Shown here: positions 1,912 through 36,591 of the stretch, piece by piece | Numbering within the stretch: position 1 is the first letter of the stretch | How the letters are laid out: each line of letters starts with the position of its first letter | Origin: Polyangiales bacterium | GTDB taxonomy: Bacteria > Myxococcota_A > Polyangia > Polyangiales > Ga0077539 | Length of the DNA: 64,000 bases | Assembly (NCBI GenBank): GCA_046351555.1 | Contig: JAXLYI010000029.1 | Coordinates: 45,727 to 109,726, forward strand | Reading direction: 5' to 3' | The notes under the pieces: model-generated | Seen by the model: only the letters and a program-made list of their open reading frames with translations | What the model was told of the DNA's origin: nothing | Databases searched by the model: none | Made by a program: the position numbers and the translations under genes

Positions 1912-3108
1912 CTACCGCTCGCACCGCGGCGCGACCTCGGCCCCCACCGTGCGGTCCCAGGCCGACGCGATCTGAGAGCCCACGGCCTCGGGGTCGATGT
2001 CGTCCCGGTTCGCCAGCACGACGACCATCGTCCCACGCGCGGGGGCCATGGCGACGTAGGTGCGGAAGCCCACGTAGCTGCCGTCGTGCGACACCTCCAG
2101 GCGGCTCCCCCGGCCCTCGACGCTCCACCCGAAGCCGTACCCCGTGGCCTCCCCGTCGCTGGTGCGCCCGGAGGTCCACGCACACTCGATCAGCGCGCGG
2201 GGGACGACGGCCTCGGTGGACCACGCGGCCTGCCAGCGCACGAAATCGCGGAGCGAGACCACCACGCCGCCGTCGCCCACCACGGGGCCCGCGTAGTCGT
2301 CGACGGTGAAGCGCCGCCCGGCGCGCGCGTACGGCACCGCGCGACCCGGGATCGCCACGCCAGCAACGTCCATCACCGTGGCGTCGGGCATCCCCAGCGG
2401 CTGGAAGATCCGCTCGCGGAGGAACCGCCCGTACGAGGAGCCTCCCGCCCGCGCGACCACCTCCGCGAGCAGGACGTAGTTCGAGTTGGAGTACTCGTAG
2501 CGCGCCCCCGGCGCGGAGCGAACGCGGCCGTCCGAGCGCAGCAGCCGGACGACCGCCGCGTTGTCGAGCGAGGCGTCGTCCTCGATGCCGAGGTCGTCCA
2601 TCATCTCGAGGTAGTCGGGGATGCCCGAGGTGTGGTGGAGGAGCTGTCGGATCGTCGCGTGACGTCCCGGGTGCGACCCCAGCTCGGTGACGTAGCGCCC
2701 GATGGGTTCGTCGAGGGAGACCTTCCCGTCGGCCACCAGCCGCATCACCGCGAGCGCGGTGAACTGCTTGCTCACCGACGCGAGTTCGAAGCGCGTCTCG
2801 GTCGTGATGGGGGCGCGCCGCGAGAGGTCGGCCAGCCCGTAGCCCCGCGCGAGCACCGGGCGCCCGCACCGCTGCACCAGCACCGCGCAGCCGGGCGTGT
2901 CCGCGCGGACCCCCGCGGCGGCGACGATCGCGGCGACGCGCGCTTCCAGGCGCCGCCGGGCGGCGGGGCTCCCGTCAGGCGCGGCAGGGGGGATCTGGGC
3001 GGCCCCGACGCTCGGCGCGGTGAGCAGCCCGAGCGTGGCGATCAGCGCGAGGCGGAGCGCGGTCGCAGGGCGGTTCGTCATGGCGCGTCTCCCTCCGGGG
3101 AGGAGCAT
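1912..3108 (-). CDS. Serine hydrolase, beta-lactamase/PBP (class C-like) family, secreted
   Basis: ORF 1912..3108 (-) 398 aa; SxxK motif (ASVSKQF), YxN (YSNSNY), HxSG-like region; N-terminal signal peptide (alternative start M at 3081). Confidence 0.8.
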   Translation of the reverse strand: MLLPGGRRAMTNRPATALRLALIATLGLLTAPSVGAAQIPPAAPDGSPAARRRLEARVAAIVAAAGVRADTPGCAVLVQRCGRPVLARGYGLADLSRRAPITTETRFELASVSKQFTALAVMRLVADGKVSLDEPIGRYVTELGSHPGRHATIRQLLHHTSGIPDYLEMMDDLGIEDDASLDNAAVVRLLRSDGRVRSAPGARYEYSNSNYVLLAEVVARAGGSSYGRFLRERIFQPLGMPDATVMDVAGVAIPGRAVPYARAGRRFTVDDYAGPVVGDGGVVVSLRDFVRWQAAWSTEAVVPRALIECAWTSGRTSDGEATGYGFGWSVEGRGSRLEVSHDGSYVGFRTYVAMAPARGTMVVVLANRDDIDPEAVGSQIASAWDRTVGAEVAPRCER

Positions 3109-3166
3109 ACGGGCGCCCGCCGCGGGATCTCACGCGGGCGGGCGCCTCTGGGGTATCGTCCGGCCG

Positions 3167-4870
3167 ATGCAGGACAGCGGGCCGCTTCGCCAGGGCCAGA
3201 TCTTCGCCGGAGATTTCACCGTCGTGCGCCTGATCGCGCGCGGGGGCATGGGGGCGGTGTACGAGGTCGAGCAGCGGAGCTCGGGGCACCGCCGCGCGCT
3301 CAAGGTGCTGCACCCCGACGTCCTGCAGAGCGGGCGCAACCGCGAGCTCTTCGTCAACGAGGCGCGGGTGGGCGCGCGCATCGGCAGCGACCACGTCGTC
3401 CAGGTGATCGCCGCGGGCATCGACGCGCAGAGCGAGCTGCCCTGGATGGCGATGGAGTACCTGGAGGGCGAGGACCTGGAGACGCTCCTCCGGCGCCGCG
3501 GGGCGCTGCCGCCGGGCGAGGCGCTGGCGCTGCTCGAACAGGTGGGCGACGCGCTGGCGGCGGCCCACGCGCGCGGCATCGTCCACTGCGACCTCAAGCC
3601 GCAGAACCTCTTCGTCGCCCGCTCGACGCTGCGGGGCGTCCCCTTCGTGGTGAAGGTGCTCGACTTCGGCATCGCGCGCGCGATCGCGGCCGACCACACG
3701 AGCGCGACGGTGACCCGGGCCATCGGCTCGCCGATGTGGATGGCGCCCGAGCAGAGCGAGACGGGCGCGCGGCTGCGGCCGGCGACCGACGTGTGGGCGC
3801 TGGGGCTCATCGCGTTCCGCATGCTGACGGGGCGGCCGTACTGGGTGGCGGCCAACGCGACGCCCTTCAACCTCAACGCGCTGATCGTCGAGGTGGTCGC
3901 GCACGCGCTGGAGCCCGCCTCCGCCCGCCTCGCGCGCCTCGGCGCCGGAGCGCCGCTGCCGCCGGGCTTCGACGCCTGGTTCGCCCGCTGCGTCCACCGC
4001 GCGATCGAGCAGCGCTACCCCGACGCGGGCGCCGCGATCGACGCGCTGCGCCCCGTGCTCCTGGGCACCGCCGCGCCGTCCTTCGCCCCGCCGCCTGCGG
4101 TCGGCGCCACGGTGCCGATGTCCTCCGCGCCGACGCCTCCCCCGACGCCCGCGACGGCGGACGCTTGGACGGTCGAGCGCGACGCCACCCGCCGCTCGAA
4201 GCTCCCCGTCGTCGCGGCCGCAGCCGGGCTCGCGCTGGTGGGCGTTGTGACCGTCGCGCTCTACCTCCGCACGCCGGCGACGCCGACGGGCGCCGCCCAC
4301 GCAGCGACGGAGGCCGGCGCGCCGCAGGTGGCCGCCGTCACGCCGCCCGCTCCGGCGCCCGCCCCCGCTGCGCCGCTCGAGGCTCAGCGACTCGATCCCG
4401 CGCCCCAGCCCGCGCCTCCGTTGCCGGTGGCGCCGCCGCCTGCGACGCCCGAAGCGCCCGTCCGCCAGACCCTCGAATCGCCCCGCGAGCGCCAGGCCCG
4501 CGAAGCCCGCGAGCGCGAGGCAGCGCGCACCGCGGACCGCGCGAATGGTCCGAACGTGCCGGCGGCTCCCGCGCCGGCGGCGCCAGCCGCCCCGGCGCCC
4601 GACGGCAACGCCAACATGACGCCGATGGAGCGCGTGGCGCAGTGCCGATCCTCCAGTGCCGATGAGACTGCCCGCAACAACTGCATCATCAACGCCCTCC
4701 GCGGTCGCGCCAGCACCGAACAGGAGCTGCGGATGCTCGCCGCGACCTACCAGGTTGCCGGTCGCACGCAGGACGCGATCCGCACGATGCGGACGTACAT
4801 CCAGCGCTACCCGCAGGGCTCCGCGGTGCGATCTTTCGAGCAGTACATCCTCCGCAACTCCGCGCACTGA
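3167..4870 (+). CDS. Eukaryotic-like Ser/Thr protein kinase with C-terminal TM segment and Pro/Ala-rich region
   Basis: Within ORF 2897..4870; start taken at M91 (MQDSGPLRQGQIF, 3167). Kinase subdomains: GxGxxG-like GGMGAVY, VAIK-like RALK, HCDLKPQN, DFG, APE (MAPEQ). TM helix LPVVAAAAGLALVGVVTVALYL. Confidence 0.85.
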   Translation: MQDSGPLRQGQIFAGDFTVVRLIARGGMGAVYEVEQRSSGHRRALKVLHPDVLQSGRNRELFVNEARVGARIGSDHVVQVIAAGIDAQSELPWMAMEYLEGEDLETLLRRRGALPPGEALALLEQVGDALAAAHARGIVHCDLKPQNLFVARSTLRGVPFVVKVLDFGIARAIAADHTSATVTRAIGSPMWMAPEQSETGARLRPATDVWALGLIAFRMLTGRPYWVAANATPFNLNALIVEVVAHALEPASARLARLGAGAPLPPGFDAWFARCVHRAIEQRYPDAGAAIDALRPVLLGTAAPSFAPPPAVGATVPMSSAPTPPPTPATADAWTVERDATRRSKLPVVAAAAGLALVGVVTVALYLRTPATPTGAAHAATEAGAPQVAAVTPPAPAPAPAAPLEAQRLDPAPQPAPPLPVAPPPATPEAPVRQTLESPRERQAREAREREAARTADRANGPNVPAAPAPAAPAAPAPDGNANMTPMERVAQCRSSSADETARNNCIINALRGRASTEQELRMLAATYQVAGRTQDAIRTMRTYIQRYPQGSAVRSFEQYILRNSAH

Positions 4871-4876
4871 CACGCC

Positions 4877-6037
4877 GTGACCCTCGCCGACGCGCACCCG
4901 ACGCCCCCGCACACCCTCCCCATGGAGCACGACCGCGCCCCGCACGGCCGCGCGCGCCTGCCCGACGCGCCGCCCGACGCGGTGGTTCGCCTCGGGCTCG
5001 GGCTGCGGCGCGCGATCCTGCGGCTGGCCGACGCCGTCGTGCCGCCCGAGCTCGCGCTCTTCGACCGCACCGTGGGCTCCGGTCGCACCGCGATGCTCGG
5101 CGCCGTCGCGCGCTGGCGCATCCCCGACCTCCTCGGCGACGTCGGGCTCACCGCCGACGAGCTCGCCGCGCGCACCGGGGCCTCGGCCGACGCGCTCCAC
5201 CGCGTGCTGCGGGCCCTCGCGCACGACGGCGTCTTCTGCCTCGGCGCCGACGGCCGCTGGCGCAACAACCGGGTCTCGTCGGCGATGCGCGCGGGCAACG
5301 GCCTGCGCATGCGCCACTGGGCGATGTACTGGGCCTCGCGGGCCAACCAGCGCACGTGGATGGCCGTCGACCACGCGCTCCGCGCGGGCGGCGGGGCCTA
5401 CCGCGAGGCCAACGGGGTCGGCGTGTGGGAGTGGTTCGACGCGCACCCCGACGAGCGCGCGTGCTTCGCCGAGGCGATGGCGGGCCTCACCGCGCAGTCC
5501 GCCGGGGGTGTGGCCGCGCGCTACCCCTTCGCCGAGGCGGGCTCGGTGTGCGACGTCGGCGGGGGCCGCGGGTTGCTGCTGTCGGAGGTGCTGCTGCGCC
5601 ATCCCCACCTGCGCGGGGTGGTCTGCGACAACGCGGGCCTCGCGCCGATGGCGAAGGAGATCTTCGAAGCGCGCGGCGTCGCCGACCGGGCGGGCTTCGT
5701 CGCCGGGAGCTTCTTCGAGTCCGTGCCCGAGGGCCACGACGTGTACCTGCTCAAGAACATCCTGCACGACTGGGGCGACGCCGAGTGCGTCCGCATCCTC
5801 GCGACGGTGCGCCGCGCGATGCGCCCCGGGGCCCGCGTGTTGGTGGTCGAGCACCTCCTCGACCGCGACGACGTGGGCAACCCCGCGGCGCTCGCCGACG
5901 TGATGATGATGCTCACCTGCGACGGCGGCCGCGAGCGCGACGCGGGGGAGTTCGCCGCGCTGTTCGAGCGGGCGGGGCTGCGGGCGGGGCGGACGTTCCC
6001 GTCGGCGCTGGAGGCGCTGCTGGAGGCGGTGGCGTAG
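4877..6037 (+). CDS. Class I SAM-dependent O-methyltransferase (COMT/plant-type OMT family 2)
   Basis: 386 aa; SAM motif I VCDVGGGRGLLL, acidic motif DVYLLKNILHDW typical of OMT family; GTG start 7 nt after kinase stop (alt ATG 4922). Confidence 0.8.
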   Translation: MTLADAHPTPPHTLPMEHDRAPHGRARLPDAPPDAVVRLGLGLRRAILRLADAVVPPELALFDRTVGSGRTAMLGAVARWRIPDLLGDVGLTADELAARTGASADALHRVLRALAHDGVFCLGADGRWRNNRVSSAMRAGNGLRMRHWAMYWASRANQRTWMAVDHALRAGGGAYREANGVGVWEWFDAHPDERACFAEAMAGLTAQSAGGVAARYPFAEAGSVCDVGGGRGLLLSEVLLRHPHLRGVVCDNAGLAPMAKEIFEARGVADRAGFVAGSFFESVPEGHDVYLLKNILHDWGDAECVRILATVRRAMRPGARVLVVEHLLDRDDVGNPAALADVMMMLTCDGGRERDAGEFAALFERAGLRAGRTFPSALEALLEAVA

Positions 6038-6071: not shown

Positions 6072-7049
6072 GTGCTCCCATCGCGCGCCATGCCCAAGCC
6101 CCACATGTGCCCCCCCGAGCTCTTCCAGCAGGACCTCTCCGGCAAGACCTACGTGGTCACCGGCGGCAACTCCGGCATCGGCCTCGTCACCGTCGAGCAG
6201 CTCGCGAAGCAGGGAGCCACCGTGGTGCTCGCCTGCCGCCGCCCCGCCGAGGGCGAGCGCGAACGCGAGCGCATCACGGCCGCCGGCGCGAAGGGACGCA
6301 TCGAGGTGGCGGCCCTCGACCTCGCCGACCTCAAGTCCGTGCGCGCCTTCGCCGAGAACTTCCTGAAGTCGCACGACGCGCTCCACGGCCTCGTCAACAA
6401 CGCCGGCGTGATGAACACCGCCACCGGCAAGACGAAGGACGGCTTCGAAGTGCAGTTCGGCACCAACCACCTCGGGCACTACCTGCTCACCGAGCTGCTG
6501 CTCGGCGCGCTGGAGAAGGGCGCCCCCTCGCGCGTGGTGGTGCTCTCGAGCTGCTACCACGACAAGGCGCAGGGTCGGGAGGGCCACATCGACTTCGACG
6601 ACCTCCACTTCGAGCGCCGCCCCTACGACGGCTGGTCCGCCTACGCGCAGTCGAAGCTCGCCAACCTCCTCCACGCCAAGGGCCTCGCGGCGCGCGTGCG
6701 CGACAAGGGGATCACCGTCGTCAGCGTGCACCCGGGCTGGGTCCGCACCAACCTCATCCGCGGGTCGATGCCGGTGTGGGCGCAGGACTACCTCCTCCGG
6801 CCCTTCCTCCACCTCGCCGGGATGATCGAACCCTGGGAGGGCGCGCAGACCTCCCTCTACGCGCTGCTCTCGCCCGACGTCGCGCAGCACCCGGGCGCCT
6901 ACTACAGCCAGCTCGGGATGTACCGCGACAAGCGCTTCAACAAGGGCGGCTGGCCGATGGAGTCGCCCAACCCCGAGGCGTCGGACGTGAAGGTCGCCGA
7001 GCGCCTCGACGCGGTGTCGCGCAAGCTCGTGGGCCTCGCCTCGGCGTAG
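6072..7049 (+). CDS. Short-chain dehydrogenase/reductase (retinol-dehydrogenase/WWOX-like SDR)
   Basis: 325 aa; TGGNSGIG NAD(P)-binding motif, NNAG, catalytic YxxxK (YAQSK). Alt starts 6090/6105. Confidence 0.85.
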   Translation: MLPSRAMPKPHMCPPELFQQDLSGKTYVVTGGNSGIGLVTVEQLAKQGATVVLACRRPAEGERERERITAAGAKGRIEVAALDLADLKSVRAFAENFLKSHDALHGLVNNAGVMNTATGKTKDGFEVQFGTNHLGHYLLTELLLGALEKGAPSRVVVLSSCYHDKAQGREGHIDFDDLHFERRPYDGWSAYAQSKLANLLHAKGLAARVRDKGITVVSVHPGWVRTNLIRGSMPVWAQDYLLRPFLHLAGMIEPWEGAQTSLYALLSPDVAQHPGAYYSQLGMYRDKRFNKGGWPMESPNPEASDVKVAERLDAVSRKLVGLASA

Positions 7050-9439: not shown

Positions 9440-10798
9440 ATGCCCGTCACCCGCCGCCTCGACCTCGACGACAACACCTCCCTCTGGGCCGCCACCGCGC
9501 GCCCCGTCGACCCGCTGCCAGCATTGCGCGGCGACGTGCGCGCCGACGTGGTGGTCATCGGCGCGGGCTTCACGGGCATCTCCACCGCGTACCACCTCTC
9601 CGCGCGCTACCCCGACCGCAAGGTGGTGGTGCTGGAGGCGAAGCGCGTCGGCAACGGGGCCTCTGGGCGCAACGGCGCGATGGCGCTCCACTGGGTCAAC
9701 GGCGTCGAGGTGCGCGACGCCGAGCGGGCCCGCCAGCTCTACGCCGTCACCACCGAGACGCTCGACTGGATCAAGAACGTCGGCCGCGAGCACGGCTTCC
9801 CGGTCCGCTTCCGCAGCAACGGCTGCCTGGAGATCGTCACCAGCGCGCAGCGCGCGGAGGAGGCCCACGAGCACGCCGAGCGGCTCGCGTCGTGGGGGCT
9901 GCCGATCCGCTTCCTCCAGGGCGCCGCGCTGGAGGAGAAGCTCCGCGCGCGGGGCGCCGTCGGGGCCACCTTCGACCCGACGACGGGCCAGCTCCATGGG
10001 CTCGACCTGCTCCACGGATTGCGCGGCGTCCTCCTCGGGCGCGGCGTGGACATCTACGAAGGTACGCCCGTCGTCCGCATCGACGAGGGCCGCGAGCACG
10101 TCGTCACCACGCCCCACGGCACGGTGCGCGCGCCCGCGCTGGTGCTCGCCACCAACGGCTACACGCCGGCGCTGGGGTATTTCCGCGGCGGGGTGATCCC
10201 GCTCCACTCGCACTGCGTCGCCACCGAGCCGCTGCCGCTCGAGCGCTGGCGCGAGCTCGGCTGGGGCGACGTCGCGGCCTTCAGCGACGACCTCGACCGC
10301 ATCGCCTACGCCAGCCTCACCGAGGACGGCCGGCTCCTCTTCGGCGGCGGCGGCAACGGCGCGTACTCGTACTACTACGGCGGCCGCACGGCGACGCCCG
10401 CGCCCCCCGAGCGCCAGTGGGCCTTCGTGCGCAGCGTGCTCGACCGGTACTTCCCCGGCGCGAAGGACGTCCGCCTCGCCCACCGCTGGACGGGCACGCT
10501 CGGCATCACGCTGAGCCGCGTGTGCAGCATGGGCGTGATGGGCGAGTACAAGAACGTCTACTACGCGCTCGGCTACAGCGGGCACGGCGTGGTGCTCGCC
10601 AACCTCGCGGGCCGCGTGCTCTGCGACCTCTACAGCGACCACCACGAGCCCTGGCGCGATCTCCCCTTCTACCAGGCGCCGCTCTGGGGCATCCCCCCGG
10701 AGCCCCTGCGCTGGATCGGCTACCACGCCTTCACCGCGGTGACCGGCCGCTCGCCGCGGCGCAACGAGGCCCGCGACTCGCTCGCGCGGAGGAGGTGA
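9440..10798 (+). CDS. FAD-dependent oxidoreductase (DAO family; D-amino-acid/glycine/sarcosine oxidase-like)
   Basis: 452 aa; N-terminal FAD fold DVVVIGAGFTGISTAYHL; overall DAO architecture; 36 nt downstream of amine oxidase (operon). Confidence 0.8.
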   Translation: MPVTRRLDLDDNTSLWAATARPVDPLPALRGDVRADVVVIGAGFTGISTAYHLSARYPDRKVVVLEAKRVGNGASGRNGAMALHWVNGVEVRDAERARQLYAVTTETLDWIKNVGREHGFPVRFRSNGCLEIVTSAQRAEEAHEHAERLASWGLPIRFLQGAALEEKLRARGAVGATFDPTTGQLHGLDLLHGLRGVLLGRGVDIYEGTPVVRIDEGREHVVTTPHGTVRAPALVLATNGYTPALGYFRGGVIPLHSHCVATEPLPLERWRELGWGDVAAFSDDLDRIAYASLTEDGRLLFGGGGNGAYSYYYGGRTATPAPPERQWAFVRSVLDRYFPGAKDVRLAHRWTGTLGITLSRVCSMGVMGEYKNVYYALGYSGHGVVLANLAGRVLCDLYSDHHEPWRDLPFYQAPLWGIPPEPLRWIGYHAFTAVTGRSPRRNEARDSLARRR

Positions 10799-30650: not shown

Positions 30651-30758
30651 GGGGGGCCGCAGATTCCGCGCCGCGTGCGCGACCGGCCCCTCGCGCTTTC
30701 CCTTTGCCTTCGGGGCCGCGGCGCCCTATCACCCTGCGCGCCGTGCCCGCCGCGCGGC

Positions 30759-30765
30759 GGAGGAG
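30759..30765 (+). promoter_or_regulatory. Shine-Dalgarno (GGAGGAG) for MVP-homolog gene
   Basis: GGAGGAG 8 nt upstream of ATG 30774. Confidence 0.5.
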
Positions 30766-30773
30766 TGACTGCG

Positions 30774-33227
30774 ATGGGAGACAACGACCGCGGCCGCGAG
30801 CGCGACCTGGTGCTCGCGCCGAACGAGTTCGCCTTCATCTCCGACGAGACGAAGGGGAACATCAACGTCTACGTCGGGCCGCACAAGACGAGCCTCGCCA
30901 ACACCGACCGGCCGGTGGTGTTCAACAACGACTCGAAGCGCTTCGACCGCTGCTCGCTGGAGCAGGCCACCCAGACGCTCGCCGTCGCCCCCGAGGGCTG
31001 GTACCTCGTCCTCAAGAACCCCGCGCGCGACGGCTCCCACCCCCGCACGGGCGCGCTCAACAACCTCCCCGACCTCAACGTCGGGCGGAAGGTCAACGTC
31101 CCTGGCCCCATCTCCTTCGCGCTCTGGCCCGGCCAGATGGTGCGCGTCATCCAGGGGCACCACCTCCGCTCCAACCAGTACCTCGTGGTGCGCGTCTACG
31201 ACGAGGAGGCCGCGCGCGCCAACTGGAAGGACGCCGTCTTCAAGCCGCAGCGGACGGGTGACGGCGCGCCCGAGCCCGAGGAGCCGCCCATCCGCCCCGA
31301 CGACCTCACCATGGGCAAGCTCATGGTCATCAAGGGGACGGAGGTGGCCTTCCACATGCCGCCGACGGGCATCGAGGTGGTGGCCGACGCGGGCGGGCGC
31401 TACGTGCGCGAGGCCGTCACGCTCGAGCGCCTCGAGTACTGCATCCTGCTCGACGAGGACGGCAACAAGCGCTTCATCCGCGGGCCCGCGGTGGTGTTCC
31501 CGCGGCCGACGGAGGGCTTCGTCGAGCGCGGCGGGGCGAGGAAGTTCCGCGCGATCGAGCTCAGCGAGACCTCGGGCATCTACGTGAAGGTGATCGCGCC
31601 CTACGAGGACGAGTCGGGCGCGCACAAGGTCGGCGAGGAGCTCTTCCTCACCGGCAAGGAGCAGATGATCTACTTCCCGCGGCCCGAGCACGCGGTGGTG
31701 AAGTACGGCGACCACGAGATCCACTACGCCATCGCGATCCCTGCGGGCGAAGGGCGCTACGTGCTCGACCGCCACACCGGGAGCATCCGCCTGGAGCGCG
31801 GGCCGTCGATCTTCCTGCCCGACCCGCGGCACCAGGTGATCATCCGCCGCGTGCTGCCGCCGCGCACGGTGTCGCTGTGGTTCCCGGGCAACGCCGACGC
31901 GCTGGCGGTGAACCAGCAGCTCGCGTCGATGAAGGAGTCGCAGGGCGAGGGCAAGCACCTCGTCGACCGGCTCCAGCAGAGCAACATCGCGCAGCGCGCC
32001 GTCGCCGCCGACGAGGCCGCGGCCGAGAAGGTGGGCCACGCCTTCGCCGGCGACGACTTCAACCGCTCGCAGACCTTCACCCGCCCCCGCACCGTCGTCC
32101 TCGACACCAAGTACGAGGGGGCCGTCTCCATCGACGTGTGGACGGGCTACGCCGTGATGGTGGTGAGCCGCTCGGGCGAGCGCAAGGTGATCGAGGGGCC
32201 GCACACGCACCTGATGGAGTACGACGAGACGCTCCAGTCGCTGGAGCTGTCGTCGGGCACGCCCAAGAGCGACGACCGGCTCGTGCGCACGGTGTACCTC
32301 CGCACGCTCAACAACAAGGTGAGCGACGCGGTGGAGGCCGAGACGCGCGACCTCTGCAAGGTGCGCCTGCTGCTCTCCTACCGGGTCAACTTCGAGGGCG
32401 ACCACGCGCGCTGGTTCAACGTCGAGAACTACGTGAAGTTCCTCTGCGACCACCTGCGCTCGCTGCTGCGGCACGCGGTGAAGCAGCACGGGGTGGAGGA
32501 CTTCTACGCCCGCGCCGCCGCGGTGGTGCGCGACGCGATCCTCGGCGGCGCCGCCGACGGCAAGCGCGCGGGCCGCTCCTTCGACGAGAACGGCATGCGC
32601 GTCTACGACGTCGAGGTGCTCGACGTCTCCCTCGGCGACGACAGCATCGCGAAGATGCTGGTCGAGGCCCAGCACGCGGCGGTGAGCGGCGCCCTCCACG
32701 TCGCCACCGAGCAGCGCAAGCTGGAGATGGTGCGCCACAGCGAGGAGACCAAGCAGCGCGTCGGCGAGATGCAGGCCGCGTCGCGCCTCGCCGAGATCGA
32801 CGCGCGCCTCCGCGAGGTGGAGCGCCAGCGCGAGCTCAGCGCCGCCGAGGCCGCCGCGGAGTCGGCCCTCGACCGCCAGCGCCACGAGTCCCGCCGCGAC
32901 GCCCAGGCGCTGATCGACGCCGTCCACGCCGCCGAGCTCGCCCGCAAGCGCGCCGAAGGGGACCAGGAGAACGAACGCGAGCGCCAGCGCCTCGAGCGCG
33001 ACCTCGCCCGCCTCGCCGCGGAGGTGCGCGCCACGGTGGAGCGGGCCGGCGCGGTGTCGCCCGACCTCGTCGCCGCGCTCCAGGCCTTCAGCGACCGCGC
33101 CCTCGCCGAGCGCATGGCCGAGAGCATGGCGCCCCTCGCGATCCTCGGGGGCGAGAGCGTCTCCGAGGTGCTCGCGCGGCTGATCCAGGGCACGCCCGCG
33201 GCCAAGGCGCTCGCGAAGAAGGCGTAG
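30774..33227 (+). CDS. Major vault protein (MVP) homolog - MVP repeat-like N-terminal region, shoulder domain, cap-helix coiled coil
   Basis: 817 aa; direct similarity to vertebrate MVP: SLELSSGTPKSD...RLLLSYRVNFEGDHARWFNVENYVKF vs human VLSLSAGRPKRP...[30 protein letters not shown]; repeated ~55-aa modules with the F/V-P-x-P...VV pattern (NKRFIRGPAVVFPRPTEGFVE, KEQMIYFPRPEHAVVKYGDHE, GPSIFLPDPRHQVII); C-terminal 150 aa Ala/Glu/Arg-rich heptad coiled coil like the MVP cap helix. Confidence 0.85.
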   Translation: MGDNDRGRERDLVLAPNEFAFISDETKGNINVYVGPHKTSLANTDRPVVFNNDSKRFDRCSLEQATQTLAVAPEGWYLVLKNPARDGSHPRTGALNNLPDLNVGRKVNVPGPISFALWPGQMVRVIQGHHLRSNQYLVVRVYDEEAARANWKDAVFKPQRTGDGAPEPEEPPIRPDDLTMGKLMVIKGTEVAFHMPPTGIEVVADAGGRYVREAVTLERLEYCILLDEDGNKRFIRGPAVVFPRPTEGFVERGGARKFRAIELSETSGIYVKVIAPYEDESGAHKVGEELFLTGKEQMIYFPRPEHAVVKYGDHEIHYAIAIPAGEGRYVLDRHTGSIRLERGPSIFLPDPRHQVIIRRVLPPRTVSLWFPGNADALAVNQQLASMKESQGEGKHLVDRLQQSNIAQRAVAADEAAAEKVGHAFAGDDFNRSQTFTRPRTVVLDTKYEGAVSIDVWTGYAVMVVSRSGERKVIEGPHTHLMEYDETLQSLELSSGTPKSDDRLVRTVYLRTLNNKVSDAVEAETRDLCKVRLLLSYRVNFEGDHARWFNVENYVKFLCDHLRSLLRHAVKQHGVEDFYARAAAVVRDAILGGAADGKRAGRSFDENGMRVYDVEVLDVSLGDDSIAKMLVEAQHAAVSGALHVATEQRKLEMVRHSEETKQRVGEMQAASRLAEIDARLREVERQRELSAAEAAAESALDRQRHESRRDAQALIDAVHAAELARKRAEGDQENERERQRLERDLARLAAEVRATVERAGAVSPDLVAALQAFSDRALAERMAESMAPLAILGGESVSEVLARLIQGTPAAKALAKKA

Positions 33228-33298: not shown

Positions 33299-34354
33299 AT
33301 GCCTGCCCAATCTCGCGAGATCCCCGTCGAGAAGCTACACCTGGACATCCGCAACCCCCGGCTTCCCGAGGTGCTCCAGGGACGCAGCGAAGCGGAGTTG
33401 CTGCGCTTCCTCTACGAAAAAGAGGAGCTCACCGAGCTGGCTGTGTCCATGTGCGACAACGGCTTCTTCGCGCACGAGCCGCTCCTCGTGGTGAAGGCGG
33501 CGAAGGGTGGCGACGATTTCACGGTCCTCGAAGGCAACCGTCGACTCGCGACCCTCAAGATCCTCCTCGGCGACCCCATCGCGGAGGACATCCAATTCGA
33601 CGGGCTCGCGCTCGATGGGGAGCGACGCGCGGAGCTGCTTCAAGTCCCCTGCGTCGAGGTAAGCGGGCGATCGGAGATCCTGTCGTTCCTTGGCTTTCGC
33701 CACATCGAGGGGCCTCGACCTTGGAGCCCCGAAGCGAAGGCGCGGTACATCGTCGACGCAGTCGATCAGGCCGTCAAGGAGGGATCACAGCGCCCTTTTT
33801 ACGAGGTCGGTCGACGCACCGGCGGCAACACGCCGGGCGTTCGAAACCTCTACGTCGCGCTCAAGGTACTGCGGGTCGCGCGCGAGGAGCACGGGTTGGA
33901 GGTTGATCCCGTCCTCGACCAGCGCTTCGGCTTCTGGCAGCGCTGCATGAACTCCCCGGAGATTCGACAGTTCATCGGTTTCGAGAGCGCGGACGACATC
34001 GACGAGATCAAGCGGAGCCTCAAGAGGCTGCGGCCAGAGGAGTTCAAGAAGGTTCTGGACGACGTTCGCCCGGGGGGGCGCCTCAAGGACTCTCGTCAGA
34101 TCACGGAGTACGGCAAGGTTCTCGTCAACCCCGCAGCCTACGAGCGCTTCCGCGAGACCGATAGCCTGGAGGAGGCGCGTCGCGTACTCAAGGCGGACTC
34201 GATCGTTGCCCGTGTGACACAGCTTCAACATGACTGTGAGAAGGTCGGCCAGGAGATCAACGGACTGGAGTCCATCGACGATCCCCTGCGTCAGGCCGTC
34301 AGCCGACTGCAGCGTGTGGTGAAGGGCATGTGGGCCGCCGTCAAGGAGGATTGA
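33299..34354 (+). CDS. ParB/Sulfiredoxin-like nuclease/NTPase-domain protein (DUF262/GmrS-like or DndB/DpdB-like)
   Basis: 351 aa in-frame tail of ORF 31877..34354; N-terminal ParB-type motif FTVLEGNRRLATLKIL (xGxRRxxA); gene has reduced GC and atypical codons (aaa, cgt, cga, tca, gat) versus flanks. Confidence 0.65.
   Translation: MPAQSREIPVEKLHLDIRNPRLPEVLQGRSEAELLRFLYEKEELTELAVSMCDNGFFAHEPLLVVKAAKGGDDFTVLEGNRRLATLKILLGDPIAEDIQFDGLALDGERRAELLQVPCVEVSGRSEILSFLGFRHIEGPRPWSPEAKARYIVDAVDQAVKEGSQRPFYEVGRRTGGNTPGVRNLYVALKVLRVAREEHGLEVDPVLDQRFGFWQRCMNSPEIRQFIGFESADDIDEIKRSLKRLRPEEFKKVLDDVRPGGRLKDSRQITEYGKVLVNPAAYERFRETDSLEEARRVLKADSIVARVTQLQHDCEKVGQEINGLESIDDPLRQAVSRLQRVVKGMWAAVKED
34343..34350 (+). 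promoter_or_regulatory. Strong Shine-Dalgarno (AAGGAGGA) for island gene 2
   Basis: AAGGAGGA 6 nt upstream of GTG 34357, inside the 3' end of the ParB-like gene (translational coupling). Confidence 0.55.
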
Positions 34355-34356
34355 GC

Positions 34357-35328
34357 GTGTCACCGATCCCTCCTCGCATCGATGCCGATGCTGTGGCTGA
34401 GCGACGTCCCATGCTTGCCGACCTCGTGGAGCAGGAGGTGTTGCGTGGCGGAAAGATGTCTCGCGCAAGGCTCGCAACATGGATCCGGAAAGCAGGCGTT
34501 ATCCGTCAACTCGCCGAGACCTATGAAGCCGACCGCCCTGAGATAGATCCCGCGGATGGTGAGGACGATCGAGCGGATGGCGCCGAGCCTGGCCCTCACG
34601 ACGTGGCAGATGAGGCCGCAGGGCGTGTGTTCGATCAACTCACGGAGCGGGCGCGGTGCTTGGCAGAACGATACCCATTTGCACTCACCGCCAGCGGTGA
34701 GTTGCGGCGAGCGGCTGGAGCTGCTCTGGGCTGGTATGACTTCTTGCTCGCACTGTCGGTTGCGCATCGCTACGCAGTCCCGGTTGAAGGGGTCCAGCTC
34801 GATCGCCTCTTCGAGCGCCTCGTAGCGAGCTGCCTGCCGAAACTCGGCTTCCAGGTCAAGCACTTCGGCACCGCGGCGACGCGATCGGGAGGCCCCATCG
34901 AACGCATCGATGCAGCCGCGAGGGAGTTGCGGCTGTTGCCACGCTGGCAAGGCAACCGCTCTCTGATTCGACGCCGCGCCAACGATGCTGGTGTCGATGC
35001 ATTAGGCCGGCTAGGAGCGGGTGATGGCAGGCCCGGGGACTGGGTGCTACTCGCGCAGACCACCGTCGCCCGGAGTGACGACTGGAACGCGAAAGCGTCG
35101 GAGGCGTTGCACTCTCCACTCCACAAAATCTTTGACGACCACCCGAGGGTGGCTGCCCTCGCGGTTCCCTATCACGTCGCAACGGAACGTTTGCTCGACT
35201 TGACACGCAACTACGAGATCGTCGTGTTCGATCGACTGCGCCTGACGCTGCTGCTCGACGCGAGGCCAACGAGCGATGGCGCGACGCTGTGCGAGGCAGT
35301 CCGCTCCGTCGAATTCGAGTGGAGCTGA
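34357..35328 (+). CDS. Hypothetical protein, island gene 2 (possible PD-(D/E)XK/Mrr-like nuclease partner)
   Basis: ~323 aa from GTG 34357 (ORF 34330..35328); lowest GC in window with ttg/cgt/gga/tat/att codons; weak motif DAGVDALGRL...GDWVLLAQ reminiscent of Mrr_cat D-G-x-(I/V)-D-G...D-(V/I)-x-x-x-Q-x-K core but catalytic Lys not conserved. Confidence 0.5.
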   Translation: MSPIPPRIDADAVAERRPMLADLVEQEVLRGGKMSRARLATWIRKAGVIRQLAETYEADRPEIDPADGEDDRADGAEPGPHDVADEAAGRVFDQLTERARCLAERYPFALTASGELRRAAGAALGWYDFLLALSVAHRYAVPVEGVQLDRLFERLVASCLPKLGFQVKHFGTAATRSGGPIERIDAAARELRLLPRWQGNRSLIRRRANDAGVDALGRLGAGDGRPGDWVLLAQTTVARSDDWNAKASEALHSPLHKIFDDHPRVAALAVPYHVATERLLDLTRNYEIVVFDRLRLTLLLDARPTSDGATLCEAVRSVEFEWS

Positions 35329-35331
35329 TGC

Positions 35332-36591
35332 GTGGCTGACGGCCAGTCCAAGCCACTGTCGGGTGAGCAGCGCAGCACCGTTCAAGACGCACCGCTGCGG
35401 AGCATGGTGTCGCTCTTCTCGGGCGTCGGGGGGCTCGACGTCGGCCTGGAGCACGCAGGCTATCAGGTGCGCTGGTGTGTCGAGCACAATGAGACGGCAC
35501 GGCGAGCGCTCAACGCTCTGCACCCCGAATGGCCGCTCGATCCCGAAGGGGACGTGAGCCGGGTGGACGCGCGGGGATGGATGAAGTCAGTGGGACTCCG
35601 TGCCGGGGACCTCGACCTGCTCGCCGCTGGCCCACCCTGCCAGCCCTTCTCACACGCGAGCGCGTGGCGGCAGGCACCGAGCCGCATCGATGACGATCGC
35701 GTCGAGCCGTTTCGCGCGCTGTTCCGCACGGTAGCGGCGCAGCTCAAGCCGCGGGTGATCCTCCTCGAGAACGTACCTTCCCTCGGCAATGAGGCCGGGC
35801 AGCGCTGGCTCCGCGCGTGGTTTCAACGGCTCAACAAGGCCGCGGGCACCGCCTATTCCCCCTCCTTCGTCACCCTCAACGCCGTCGAGCACGGTGTGCC
35901 TCAATGCCGGCGTCGTCTGTTCATCGTTGCAGAACGTAGCGGGCGATCGTTTGCCGCGCCCGCCGCCACACACCACCCGCCCGAGGCCATCCCCCCCGGA
36001 GGCCGCCGCTACGTGACCGCGTGGGACGCTATCGGCACCCTCGAAGATGATCCTGATCCGAGGCTGCGATGCACCGGCCGTTGGGCCGATCTGCTCCCCT
36101 CCATCCCCGAGGGCTTGAACTACTACCACCACACCCCTCAGGGTGAGGGGCTTCCCCTCTTCGGTTACCGTACACGGTACTGGAGCTTCCTCCTCAAGCT
36201 CGCGAAAGATCGCCCTGCCTGGACCCTCCCCGCAAGCCCCGGCCCCGCAACTGGCCCCTTCCATTGGAAGAGCCGCAAGCTCTCTGCGCGCGAACTCGCC
36301 GCGCTCCAGACGATTCCACTTCCGCACGCTCTTGACCTCCCGCTCCATGTCGCGCAGCGCCTGCTTGGCAATGCGGTTCCGGGCGCGCTCGGAGAGCTGA
36401 TGGGATTCCAAGTTCGCACTCAACTCTTCGGCGAAACTCTATCCTGGCAACCTCGCCTCGTCCCGGCACCACGCAACGACTGCCCGGCCCCCATGCCTCC
36501 TGCGCCCGTCCCCTCACGCTTCGCCATCGCCCGTTCCGCGCCCGAAGCTCACCCCGGTGCCGGACGAGGCCCGCGCCCCTGGCAGCGCTGA
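35332..36591 (+). CDS. dcm: DNA (cytosine-5)-methyltransferase
   Basis: 419 aa; motif I LFSGVGG, motif IV PPCQPFS, motif VI ENVPSL, motif VIII QCRRRLFIV; start 4 nt after gene 2 stop (alt start ATG 35404 at MVSLFSGVGG). Confidence 0.9.
   Translation: MADGQSKPLSGEQRSTVQDAPLRSMVSLFSGVGGLDVGLEHAGYQVRWCVEHNETARRALNALHPEWPLDPEGDVSRVDARGWMKSVGLRAGDLDLLAAGPPCQPFSHASAWRQAPSRIDDDRVEPFRALFRTVAAQLKPRVILLENVPSLGNEAGQRWLRAWFQRLNKAAGTAYSPSFVTLNAVEHGVPQCRRRLFIVAERSGRSFAAPAATHHPPEAIPPGGRRYVTAWDAIGTLEDDPDPRLRCTGRWADLLPSIPEGLNYYHHTPQGEGLPLFGYRTRYWSFLLKLAKDRPAWTLPASPGPATGPFHWKSRKLSARELAALQTIPLPHALDLPLHVAQRLLGNAVPGALGELMGFQVRTQLFGETLSWQPRLVPAPRNDCPAPMPPAPVPSRFAIARSAPEAHPGAGRGPRPWQR

Follow-up and report, generated by a model that had tools for sequence, protein, structure and literature searches.

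The question raised by this locus is what is encoded by a gene wedged, almost without spacing, between a ParB-like gene and a Dcm-type cytosine methyltransferase gene in the genome of a Polyangiales bacterium. The window analysed is a stretch of 64,000 nucleotides (nt) (assembly GCA_046351555.1, contig JAXLYI010000029.1, positions 45,727 to 109,726), and the gene in question, at positions 34357..35328 of the window, encodes a protein of 323 amino acids (aa), referred to below as the target. An earlier sequence-only reading had described it as a candidate restriction component with a faint Mrr/PD-(D/E)xK signature. Our analysis suggests that the target is probably the DNA-cutting effector of a horizontally moving, three-gene module that resembles a restriction-modification (R-M) system and consists of a ParB/KorB-like protein, an Mrr-like nuclease, and a C5 methyltransferase (MTase). 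The observed or computed basis for this proposal comprises the predicted fold, the conservation of motifs, the synteny and co-divergence of the three genes, the island character of the locus, and the match of the ParB-like protein to the PD-Lambda-5_A models of PADLOC. The components in the window are as follows.

33299..34354, plus strand: ParB/KorB-like gene, 351 aa, with an N-terminal ParB/Srx nucleoside triphosphate (NTP)-pocket fold and a central helix-turn-helix (HTH)
34343..34350, plus strand: Shine-Dalgarno sequence of the target gene, read from the sequence, inside the 3' end of the ParB-like gene
34357..35328, plus strand: target gene, 323-aa divergent Mrr-like PD-(D/E)xK protein, presumed nuclease subunit
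35332..36591, plus strand: C5 cytosine DNA methyltransferase (Dcm) gene, 419 aa, presumed to serve self-protection (Pfam DNA_methylase, E 5.2e-35; TIGR00675, E 1.9e-32)

Predicted fold and candidate active site of the target

The structure of the target was predicted with AlphaFold2 from an alignment of 146 family members, which share 23–71% (mostly 25–35%) identity with the window protein. The model had a mean predicted local distance difference test score (pLDDT) of 93.1 and a predicted template modelling score (pTM) of 0.91, and low confidence was confined to an acidic linker at residues about 55–79. The linker separates an N-terminal helical module, possibly a winged-helix, from a large C-terminal domain, and the alpha-beta-beta-beta-alpha-beta core of the PD-(D/E)xK superfamily is present in the predicted model of this domain (helix 148–163, b1 166–169, b2 215–219, b3 229–235, helix 240–251, and b4 264–269). 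In the fold comparison, the leading scores were those of N.BspD6I (10.0), AF1548 (8.3), NucS (8.1), VC1899 (7.6), Upx (7.5), FokI (7.5), and BsmI (7.5), and further matches included HamA, SdaI, the small subunit of R.BspD6I, Hjc, Can2, CdiA-CT, NgoMIV, PaqCI, and HindIII. The structural comparison proposed in the sequence-only reading, against PD-(D/E)xK, HNH, and DUF1524 folds, thus returned PD-(D/E)xK enzymes; an identity of the target as an HNH or DUF1524 nuclease was rejected, because no such folds were among the matches. The modules and candidate active-site residues map to the window as follows.

34357..34521, plus strand: N-terminal helical module, residues ~1–55, with helices 13–29, 36–46, and 49–53 and the invariant E25
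34522–34593, plus strand: acidic low-confidence linker, residues ~56–79
34594..35325, plus strand: predicted PD-(D/E)xK-fold domain, residues ~80–323
34813..34815, plus strand: codon of E153, in the 'FE' motif of core helix 1, counterpart of Mrr E171 (E in 139/146 members)
34984..34998, plus strand: D210-A-G-V-D214 at the start of b2, counterpart of Mrr D199-G-G-I-D203 (D214 in 146/146; D or E at position 210 in all)
35056..35064, plus strand: Q234-T-T236 in b3, at the canonical (D/E/Q)-x-K position, with Lys replaced by Thr (Q234 in 146/146, T236 in 145/146)
35083..35094, plus strand: W243-N-A-K246 in the helix after b3 (W243 and K246 in 146/146, kept in the phage homologues)

The stretch that had been likened to Mrr, with its Lys replaced, is indeed found at residues 209–236 (NDAGVDALGRLGAGDGRPGDWVLLAQTT), and its D214 and Q234 are invariant. 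The order of motifs is common to Escherichia coli Mrr (F170-E171, D199-G-G-I-D203, and Q217-A-K219) and the target (F152-E153, D210-A-G-V-D214, and Q234-T-T236), and the homologues of P2-like phages carry a literal GDGG(I/F/L)D, with Q-C-A or Q-C-G in place of Q-x-K. When residues were placed by means of the secondary structure of the model, the acidic residues that the superfamily has at the start of strand 2 and in core helix 1 were present as D214 and E153. Seven residues (E25, R98, Y127, D214, Q234, W243, and K246) were invariant in all 146 members, and H137, E153, D210 (D or E), D223, R225, T236, S240, H273, D292, and R293 were nearly so. The model and these conservation patterns point to a PD-(D/E)xK domain of Mrr descent with a remodelled site that keeps E153, D210, D214, and the Gln of Q-x-K, and K246 is a candidate for a relocated catalytic Lys. 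The earlier suggestion of a divergent nuclease with a faint Mrr/PD-(D/E)xK signature is therefore supported by the predicted fold and the motif order.

The family to which the target belongs is large. A HMMER search with a five-sequence profile returned 1,612 representative clusters (50% identity clusters) at E ≤ 1e-3, 503 at 1e-10, and 162 at 1e-30, and among the best 150 matches listed, nearly all were 270–340 aa long and aligned over most of their length. These proteins (~300–330 aa) extend to Myxococcota, Actinomycetota, Acidobacteriota, Pseudomonadota, and P2-like phages, and wherever they are annotated, they are labelled 'hypothetical', with no Pfam, NCBIfam, PADLOC, or RefSeq annotation. 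Searches of the target itself gave no meaningful Pfam match (a lone SPAM hit at E 0.013 was judged spurious) and no match in NCBIfam or PADLOC; in PHROGs, there were weak matches to just two families, both of similar length and of unknown function, phrog_14650 (5e-8) and phrog_3984 (7e-6). In a tblastn search of the phage and plasmid collections, the window protein found no match, and the phage homologues were reached solely through the ParB-like neighbour and profile comparison.

Island character, partner genes, and distribution of the trio

The open reading frame (ORF) around the target spans 34330..35328 (+), and the GTG at 34357 yields the 323-aa protein. That the Shine-Dalgarno sequence AAGGAGGA falls within the 3' end of the ParB-like gene points to translational coupling of the two genes. 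The stop codon of the ParB-like gene occupies 34352–34354, and the GTG of the target comes 2 nt later; at the other end, a 3-nt spacer separates the stop codon of the target (35326–35328) from the GTG of the Dcm gene (35332), with GGAG 7 nt upstream of that GTG. The tight coupling between the ParB-like and Dcm genes noted in the sequence-only reading is evident in these gaps of 2 nt and 3 nt. The corresponding GenBank product (P0001, U0324_34695) is 100% identical, 305 aa long, and annotated as a hypothetical protein, and it probably uses the ATG at 34411. Meanwhile, the three closest homologues (P0002–P0004, 57–71% identity) align from residue 1 of the protein starting at GTG 34357; the strong ribosome-binding site at this GTG and the conserved N-terminal residues suggest that the deposited start is 18 codons too short.

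The GC content is 63.5% in the ParB-like gene, 63.9% in the target gene, and 68.1% in the Dcm gene, against a window mean of 74.5%, and the deepest 972-nt GC trough (33894–34865, 62.7%) covers parts of both the ParB-like and target genes. The target had been called the lowest-GC gene of the window; strictly, that place belongs to the ParB-like gene, and the two are nearly tied within the trough. The GC content at third codon positions (GC3) is ~0.7–0.8 across the three genes (0.69 in the target), whereas it is 0.98 in the flanking genes. The trough and the contrast in GC3 mark the three genes as a small island acquired by horizontal transfer. Its flanks showed no convincing repeats, either direct or inverted, and no tRNA gene was found within the 64-kilobase (kb) window. 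Directly upstream of the island, at 30675–33227 (+), lies a gene for an 850-aa, bacterial major-vault-protein-like protein (MVP_shoulder PF11978, E 1.7e-27; Vault_3; weak Band_7) with native codon bias (GC3 0.98). Long antisense or alternative-frame ORFs also run over the three genes and their neighbours, for example at 34360–34950 (-), 34770–35126 (-), and 34856–35500 (-); these are artefacts of a stop-codon-poor genome of ~75% GC and not genes.

The ParB-like protein was aligned and modelled with its database homologues. The N-P-R motif (N19-P20-R21) and the E-G-N-R-R motif (residues 78–82, Box II) were invariant in 113 homologues, and the C-terminus consists of two long helices (290–321 and 328–349). 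The protein matched the PADLOC PD-Lambda-5_A models, mostly over the first ~160 model positions (best E 1.4e-19), and phrog_3694 at 9e-54. Fold matches of its model included sigma region 4 and the HTH domains of KorB, SopB, and ParB, and neither a HEPN nor a nuclease fold was among them; the presence of a HEPN domain in this partner was accordingly rejected. The NTP-pocket motifs, the HTH, and the helical C-terminus together indicate that it is an NTP-switch protein of the KorB/ParB type.

The arrangement seen in the window is conserved elsewhere. A scan for the degenerate DNA pattern of FLAVPHHV(E/D), with one genome per species, gave 27 hits, of which 22 were true members according to the family's own hidden Markov models (HMMs), and these scan loci were viewed as 8-kb blocks. 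The ParB-like gene lay directly upstream of the nuclease gene in 28/28 informative loci (11 curated loci and 17/17 scan loci), and the two ORFs overlapped by 1–20 nt in many loci or abutted. An intact C5 MTase was present within the 8-kb block in 15/22 scan loci, most of the remaining loci being cut by block edges, and also in Curtobacterium, Poriferisocius, Rhodococcus qingshengii, phages D14A, 12474III, and Wphi, and 36 E. coli genomes; adjacent nuclease and MTase genes were seen in the window and in >20 other loci. Across 14 complete loci, the Spearman correlations of pairwise identities were 0.93 (ParB–nuclease), 0.88 (ParB–MTase), and 0.81 (nuclease–MTase), where the identity pairs are not independent and the p-values are inflated. 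These rank-correlated identities indicate that the three genes travel together. The view that the target sits where a cognate restriction endonuclease would be expected is upheld by this conserved synteny and by the co-divergence with a C5 MTase across phyla and phages.

In Curtobacterium, the homologue (33% identical) lies between a ParB-like gene (39% identical to that of the window) and a convergent C5 MTase gene. In Curtobacterium sp. ER1/6 (locus L001), the trio is inserted between two OsmC paralogues (6240–6683 and 10021–10398), which suggests an insertion into or next to a duplicated locus. The trio was also found on a Poriferisocius chromosome, in GCA_054017915.1, at a soil locus in three assemblies, and in a complete Rhodococcus qingshengii genome, and other hosts likewise have three-gene insertions between housekeeping genes. 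Among P2-like phages, it is carried by Pseudomonas phage D14A and E. coli phage 12474III, and Yersinia phage HQ103 has it without an annotated MTase. It occupies the variable cargo region of these phages, in 12474III between the portal gene Q and the replication gene A, and in coliphage Wphi (locus L041) it corresponds to orf98/orf96/mth. A cassette at least 99% identical occurs in 36/5,426 complete E. coli genomes, the listed records being of serogroup O145 and including O145:H28 prophages, and 104 further E. coli genomes have partial matches at 90–95% identity. PGAP labels the genes of the E. coli cassette 'ParB N-terminal domain-containing protein', 'hypothetical protein', and 'DNA cytosine methyltransferase'.

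Some loci depart from the common plan. The MTase gene is not always oriented in the same way with respect to the nuclease gene. In L022 (5584–6566) and L039 (1450–2477), the nuclease homologue is broken up over two or three overlapping ORFs as a result of frameshifts or assembly errors, and the 5.5 kb left of the L039 block show no methyltransferase. The locus L042, from a Bryobacterales metagenome-assembled genome (MAG), has mobile surroundings, with integrases, a resolvase, RepA_C, and an MZB/helicase gene pair. In six related loci (L018, L026, L027, L029, L031, and L033), a HhH-GPD/endonuclease III-like glycosylase gene lies between the nuclease and C5 MTase genes (for example, L029 4746–5534 (-) and L031 2271–3188 (-); Pfam HhH-GPD, E ~5e-9, with a C-terminal Cys cluster), and the island in the window is without it. 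A glycosylase that repairs deaminated 5-methylcytosine (m5C) is a classical companion of active m5C methylases, as in the Mig/Vsr logic, so its presence in these loci is an independent sign of real m5C methylation. In L026, the glycosylase ORF appears to be 5'-truncated, and an insertion of ~3 kb (2396–5372) between this remnant and the MTase gene contains long ORFs that, by eye, look like an IS66-type transposase.

Proposed mechanism and rival explanations

From these features, we infer that the target cleaves DNA, that it works in a complex with the ParB-like protein, and that the module depends on NTP, is sensitive to methylation, and acts against phages. The target and the ParB-like protein would be made in a fixed ratio, because their genes are translationally coupled or overlapping, and would probably act as a complex. 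The ParB-like subunit, with its NTP-binding ParB fold, HTH, and dimerising C-terminus, would bind or clamp DNA in an NTP-dependent manner and would license or position the nuclease on DNA that lacks the module's own m5C mark. In the nuclease, the invariant K246 from the next helix may stand in for the strand Lys. The linked C5 MTase would protect the host, and the net role of the module would be defence or addiction.

Several points weigh against this proposal. The (D/E)-x-K of strand 3 is absent throughout the family, which has Q234-x-T236 instead. Variants of the PD-(D/E)xK fold without the canonical triad are known, such as those of the BamHI, BglII, and NgoMIV types; the absence therefore weakens the claim that the target is a canonical member of the superfamily, but not the fold assignment. 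The nearness of K246 to the site is inferred from the topology and from the relocated residues of NgoMIV/Cfr10I-type enzymes. Foldseek returned nothing below E 1e-3 for the target model, its best matches above that value being of the same class (VC1899, Can2, Cdn1, N.BspD6I, Card1, and EcoO109I). The sequence-profile links of the window protein to Mrr are not significant either: Pfam Mrr_cat (PF04471) was touched weakly by 2/146 members (best E 7e-4) and was not matched by the window protein, hhalign of the family profile against E. coli Mrr gave a probability of 0.4% with only the FE helix aligned, and phmmer and family-profile searches of PDB sequences gave nothing meaningful. Since some ParB/Srx proteins cut DNA, the ParB-like protein could itself be the nuclease. 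In L042 (9957–10640; same contig as L017), the ParB-like and nuclease genes are intact, and the MTase is in fragments (HMM positions 3–34, 82–106, and 288–322), followed by a DDE_Tnp_1 transposase; a decayed MTase beside an insertion sequence argues against strict lethality of the nuclease without its MTase. Finally, literature searches found no cleavage, toxicity, or defence results for any family member.

The missing strand Lys, shared by the whole target family, would also fit an exchange of roles, in which the PD-(D/E)xK domain is a non-catalytic scaffold or reader of DNA or its modification, and the ParB-like protein is the enzyme, either a nuclease or an NTP-degrading effector. Of the two proteins, the ParB-like one is the better conserved (mean pairwise identity 0.47 vs 0.42), and passages in PMC10853773 (citing Maindola 2014) and PMC3710099 propose ParB/Srx-fold proteins as nucleases or NTPases in conflict systems. 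However, the invariant acidic and Gln residues of the target fall exactly on the positions of the metal site, and the helix that follows has a Lys and a Trp that are likewise invariant, which is the pattern to be expected of a catalytic site rather than of a scaffold, and the ParB-like model is that of a KorB/Spo0J-type NTP switch with an HTH, unlike known nucleases. We therefore consider such an exchange of roles unlikely.

It is more doubtful still that the target is a Type IV Mrr-like nuclease directed against foreign modified DNA, with the MTase as an unrelated passenger or a phage anti-restriction methylase. The closest relative by motif and architecture is EcoKMrr, a Type IV enzyme, and both the decayed MTase beside an intact nuclease in L042 and the variable orientation of the MTase gene are consistent with a passenger. 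Nevertheless, the MTase co-diverges with both of the other genes (Spearman 0.81–0.88) and occurs in most loci across several phyla and phages, and an m5C-dependent nuclease beside an m5C methylase would attack its own host. The non-canonical motif and the 'hypothetical' annotation given everywhere might instead mark a decayed, inactive remnant of a nuclease with no current function in the MAG, an option to which we give very little credence: the ORF is intact with a strong ribosome-binding site, the predicted fold is confident except in the acidic linker, and seven residues are invariant in 146 diverse members. The inactivation considered in the sequence-only reading is unlikely for the same reason, because Q-x-T, nearly invariant and accompanied by K246 in the next helix, is a signature of the family, and the missing Lys is thus not a lesion of this copy. 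Overall, a DNA-cutting effector acting with a ParB-like partner and a protective MTase remains the probable explanation.

Significance and comparison with known systems

The trio is, as far as we found, uncharacterised, and it turns up across many bacterial phyla as well as in P2-like phages; literature searches found no characterisation of the trio, of Wphi orf96/orf98, or of a defence system composed of ParB, nuclease, and methylase. A large unannotated family can thereby be assigned a predicted fold, a putative active site, and a place within a system. The module is also tractable in E. coli, where cassettes are already present in Wphi, a long-known coliphage, and in prophages of enterohaemorrhagic E. 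coli (EHEC) O145:H28. The wide occurrence of the trio, its lack of annotation, its presence in tractable E. coli phages, and its possible capacity for restriction through a ParB switch make it of moderate to high interest.

EcoKMrr (Mrr_cat, PF04471) and the target share an N-terminal DNA-binding-type module, a linker, and a C-terminal PD-(D/E)xK domain (304 vs 323 aa), as well as the order of FE, D-x-G-x-D at b2, and Gln in b3, with an exact GDGGID in P2-like phage homologues. They differ in that the target has Thr (phage members, Ala or Gly) for the Lys of Q-x-K, an invariant Lys 12 residues further on, and an insertion of ~30 residues between helix 1 and b2. Furthermore, Mrr is a solitary modification-dependent enzyme, whereas the target is always beside a ParB-like gene and usually beside a C5 MTase gene; in place of the absence of a cognate methyltransferase typical of Mrr, a co-diverging C5 MTase is linked in most target loci. 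Like Type II R-M systems, the trio has adjacent, co-inherited nuclease and MTase genes, but it departs from restriction by a nuclease alone in having an NTP-pocket ParB-like gene upstream in 28/28 informative loci. On whether the nuclease would be toxic without its MTase, as in a Type II system, the loci give indirect hints in both directions: the nuclease is disrupted in L022 and L039, but it is intact beside the decayed MTase of L042. The best structural matches of the target are Type IIS/FokI-like and N.BspD6I-type nucleases, at 8–13% identity and with large root-mean-square deviations for multi-domain superpositions; unlike the target, these enzymes carry the canonical D...D/E-x-K site and lack a ParB-like partner. 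A role as a Type I specificity subunit was rejected, as there is no HsdS/HsdR/HsdM context.

Enzymes of the GmrSD/BrxU/SspE type (DUF262) couple a ParB/Srx-fold NTP-binding module to a DNA nuclease in defence, which is the same design principle as that of the trio. In these enzymes, which are modification-dependent, both parts lie in one polypeptide and the nuclease is of the His-Me (DUF1524/HNH) type, whereas in the trio they are separate proteins, the nuclease is of the PD-(D/E)xK type, and a methyltransferase is linked. Operons of a HEPN protein (MAE_28990 family), a ParB nuclease, and a DNA methylase have been noted computationally (Anantharaman et al. 2013, PMC3710099); they follow the same three-part plan as the trio, with a HEPN RNase and not a PD-(D/E)xK protein as the effector. 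Beyond what the sequence-only reading had proposed, the target has an obligate partner in the ParB-like gene, to which it is translationally coupled, and the module resembles PD-lambda-5. The latter, listed as 'ParB/HEPN, methyltransferase', is an experimentally validated defence system that was cloned in an mrr-deleted host, gave broad protection over a phage panel, and was described by its authors as a compacted prophage system combining restriction-modification and abortive infection (RM+Abi) (Vassallo et al. 2022, PMC9519451). Both have a ParB-N-domain protein matched by the same PADLOC models, a DNA methyltransferase, a prophage setting, and the logic of R-M plus an effector. Among the 25 best PADLOC matches listed, none was seen that would show whether the C5 MTase of the window is of the PD-Lambda-5_B type. 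PD-lambda-5 is a two-gene system in which the ParB domain is fused to a HEPN (RNase-type) effector, whereas the trio has three genes, with a ParB-like protein that carries an HTH and coiled helices but no HEPN, and a separate PD-(D/E)xK effector. Because its ParB-like protein lacks HEPN and it has an extra gene, the trio does not belong to PD-lambda-5.

A 2025 survey of the ParB-CTPase fold stresses that the function of orphan prophage ParBs is unexplained (PMC12704722). The trio ties this field to restriction and defence, and it may couple the ParB NTP switch to restriction. Tentatively, it might represent a distinct R-M class, in which an NTP-dependent clamp of the ParB/KorB type senses unmethylated sites and loads or activates an Mrr-derived nuclease with a relocated catalytic Lys. 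If so, the clamp would close or slide on DNA after binding unmethylated sites, and restriction would depend on a ParB-CTPase switch rather than on a helicase/translocase, as in Type I and Type III systems, or on a stand-alone dimer, as in Type II. PD-lambda-5 may belong to a wider design of a ParB-like sensor, a swappable effector, and a methyltransferase, and if the trio is such a distinct class, PD-lambda-5 would be the same chassis with a HEPN effector swapped in.

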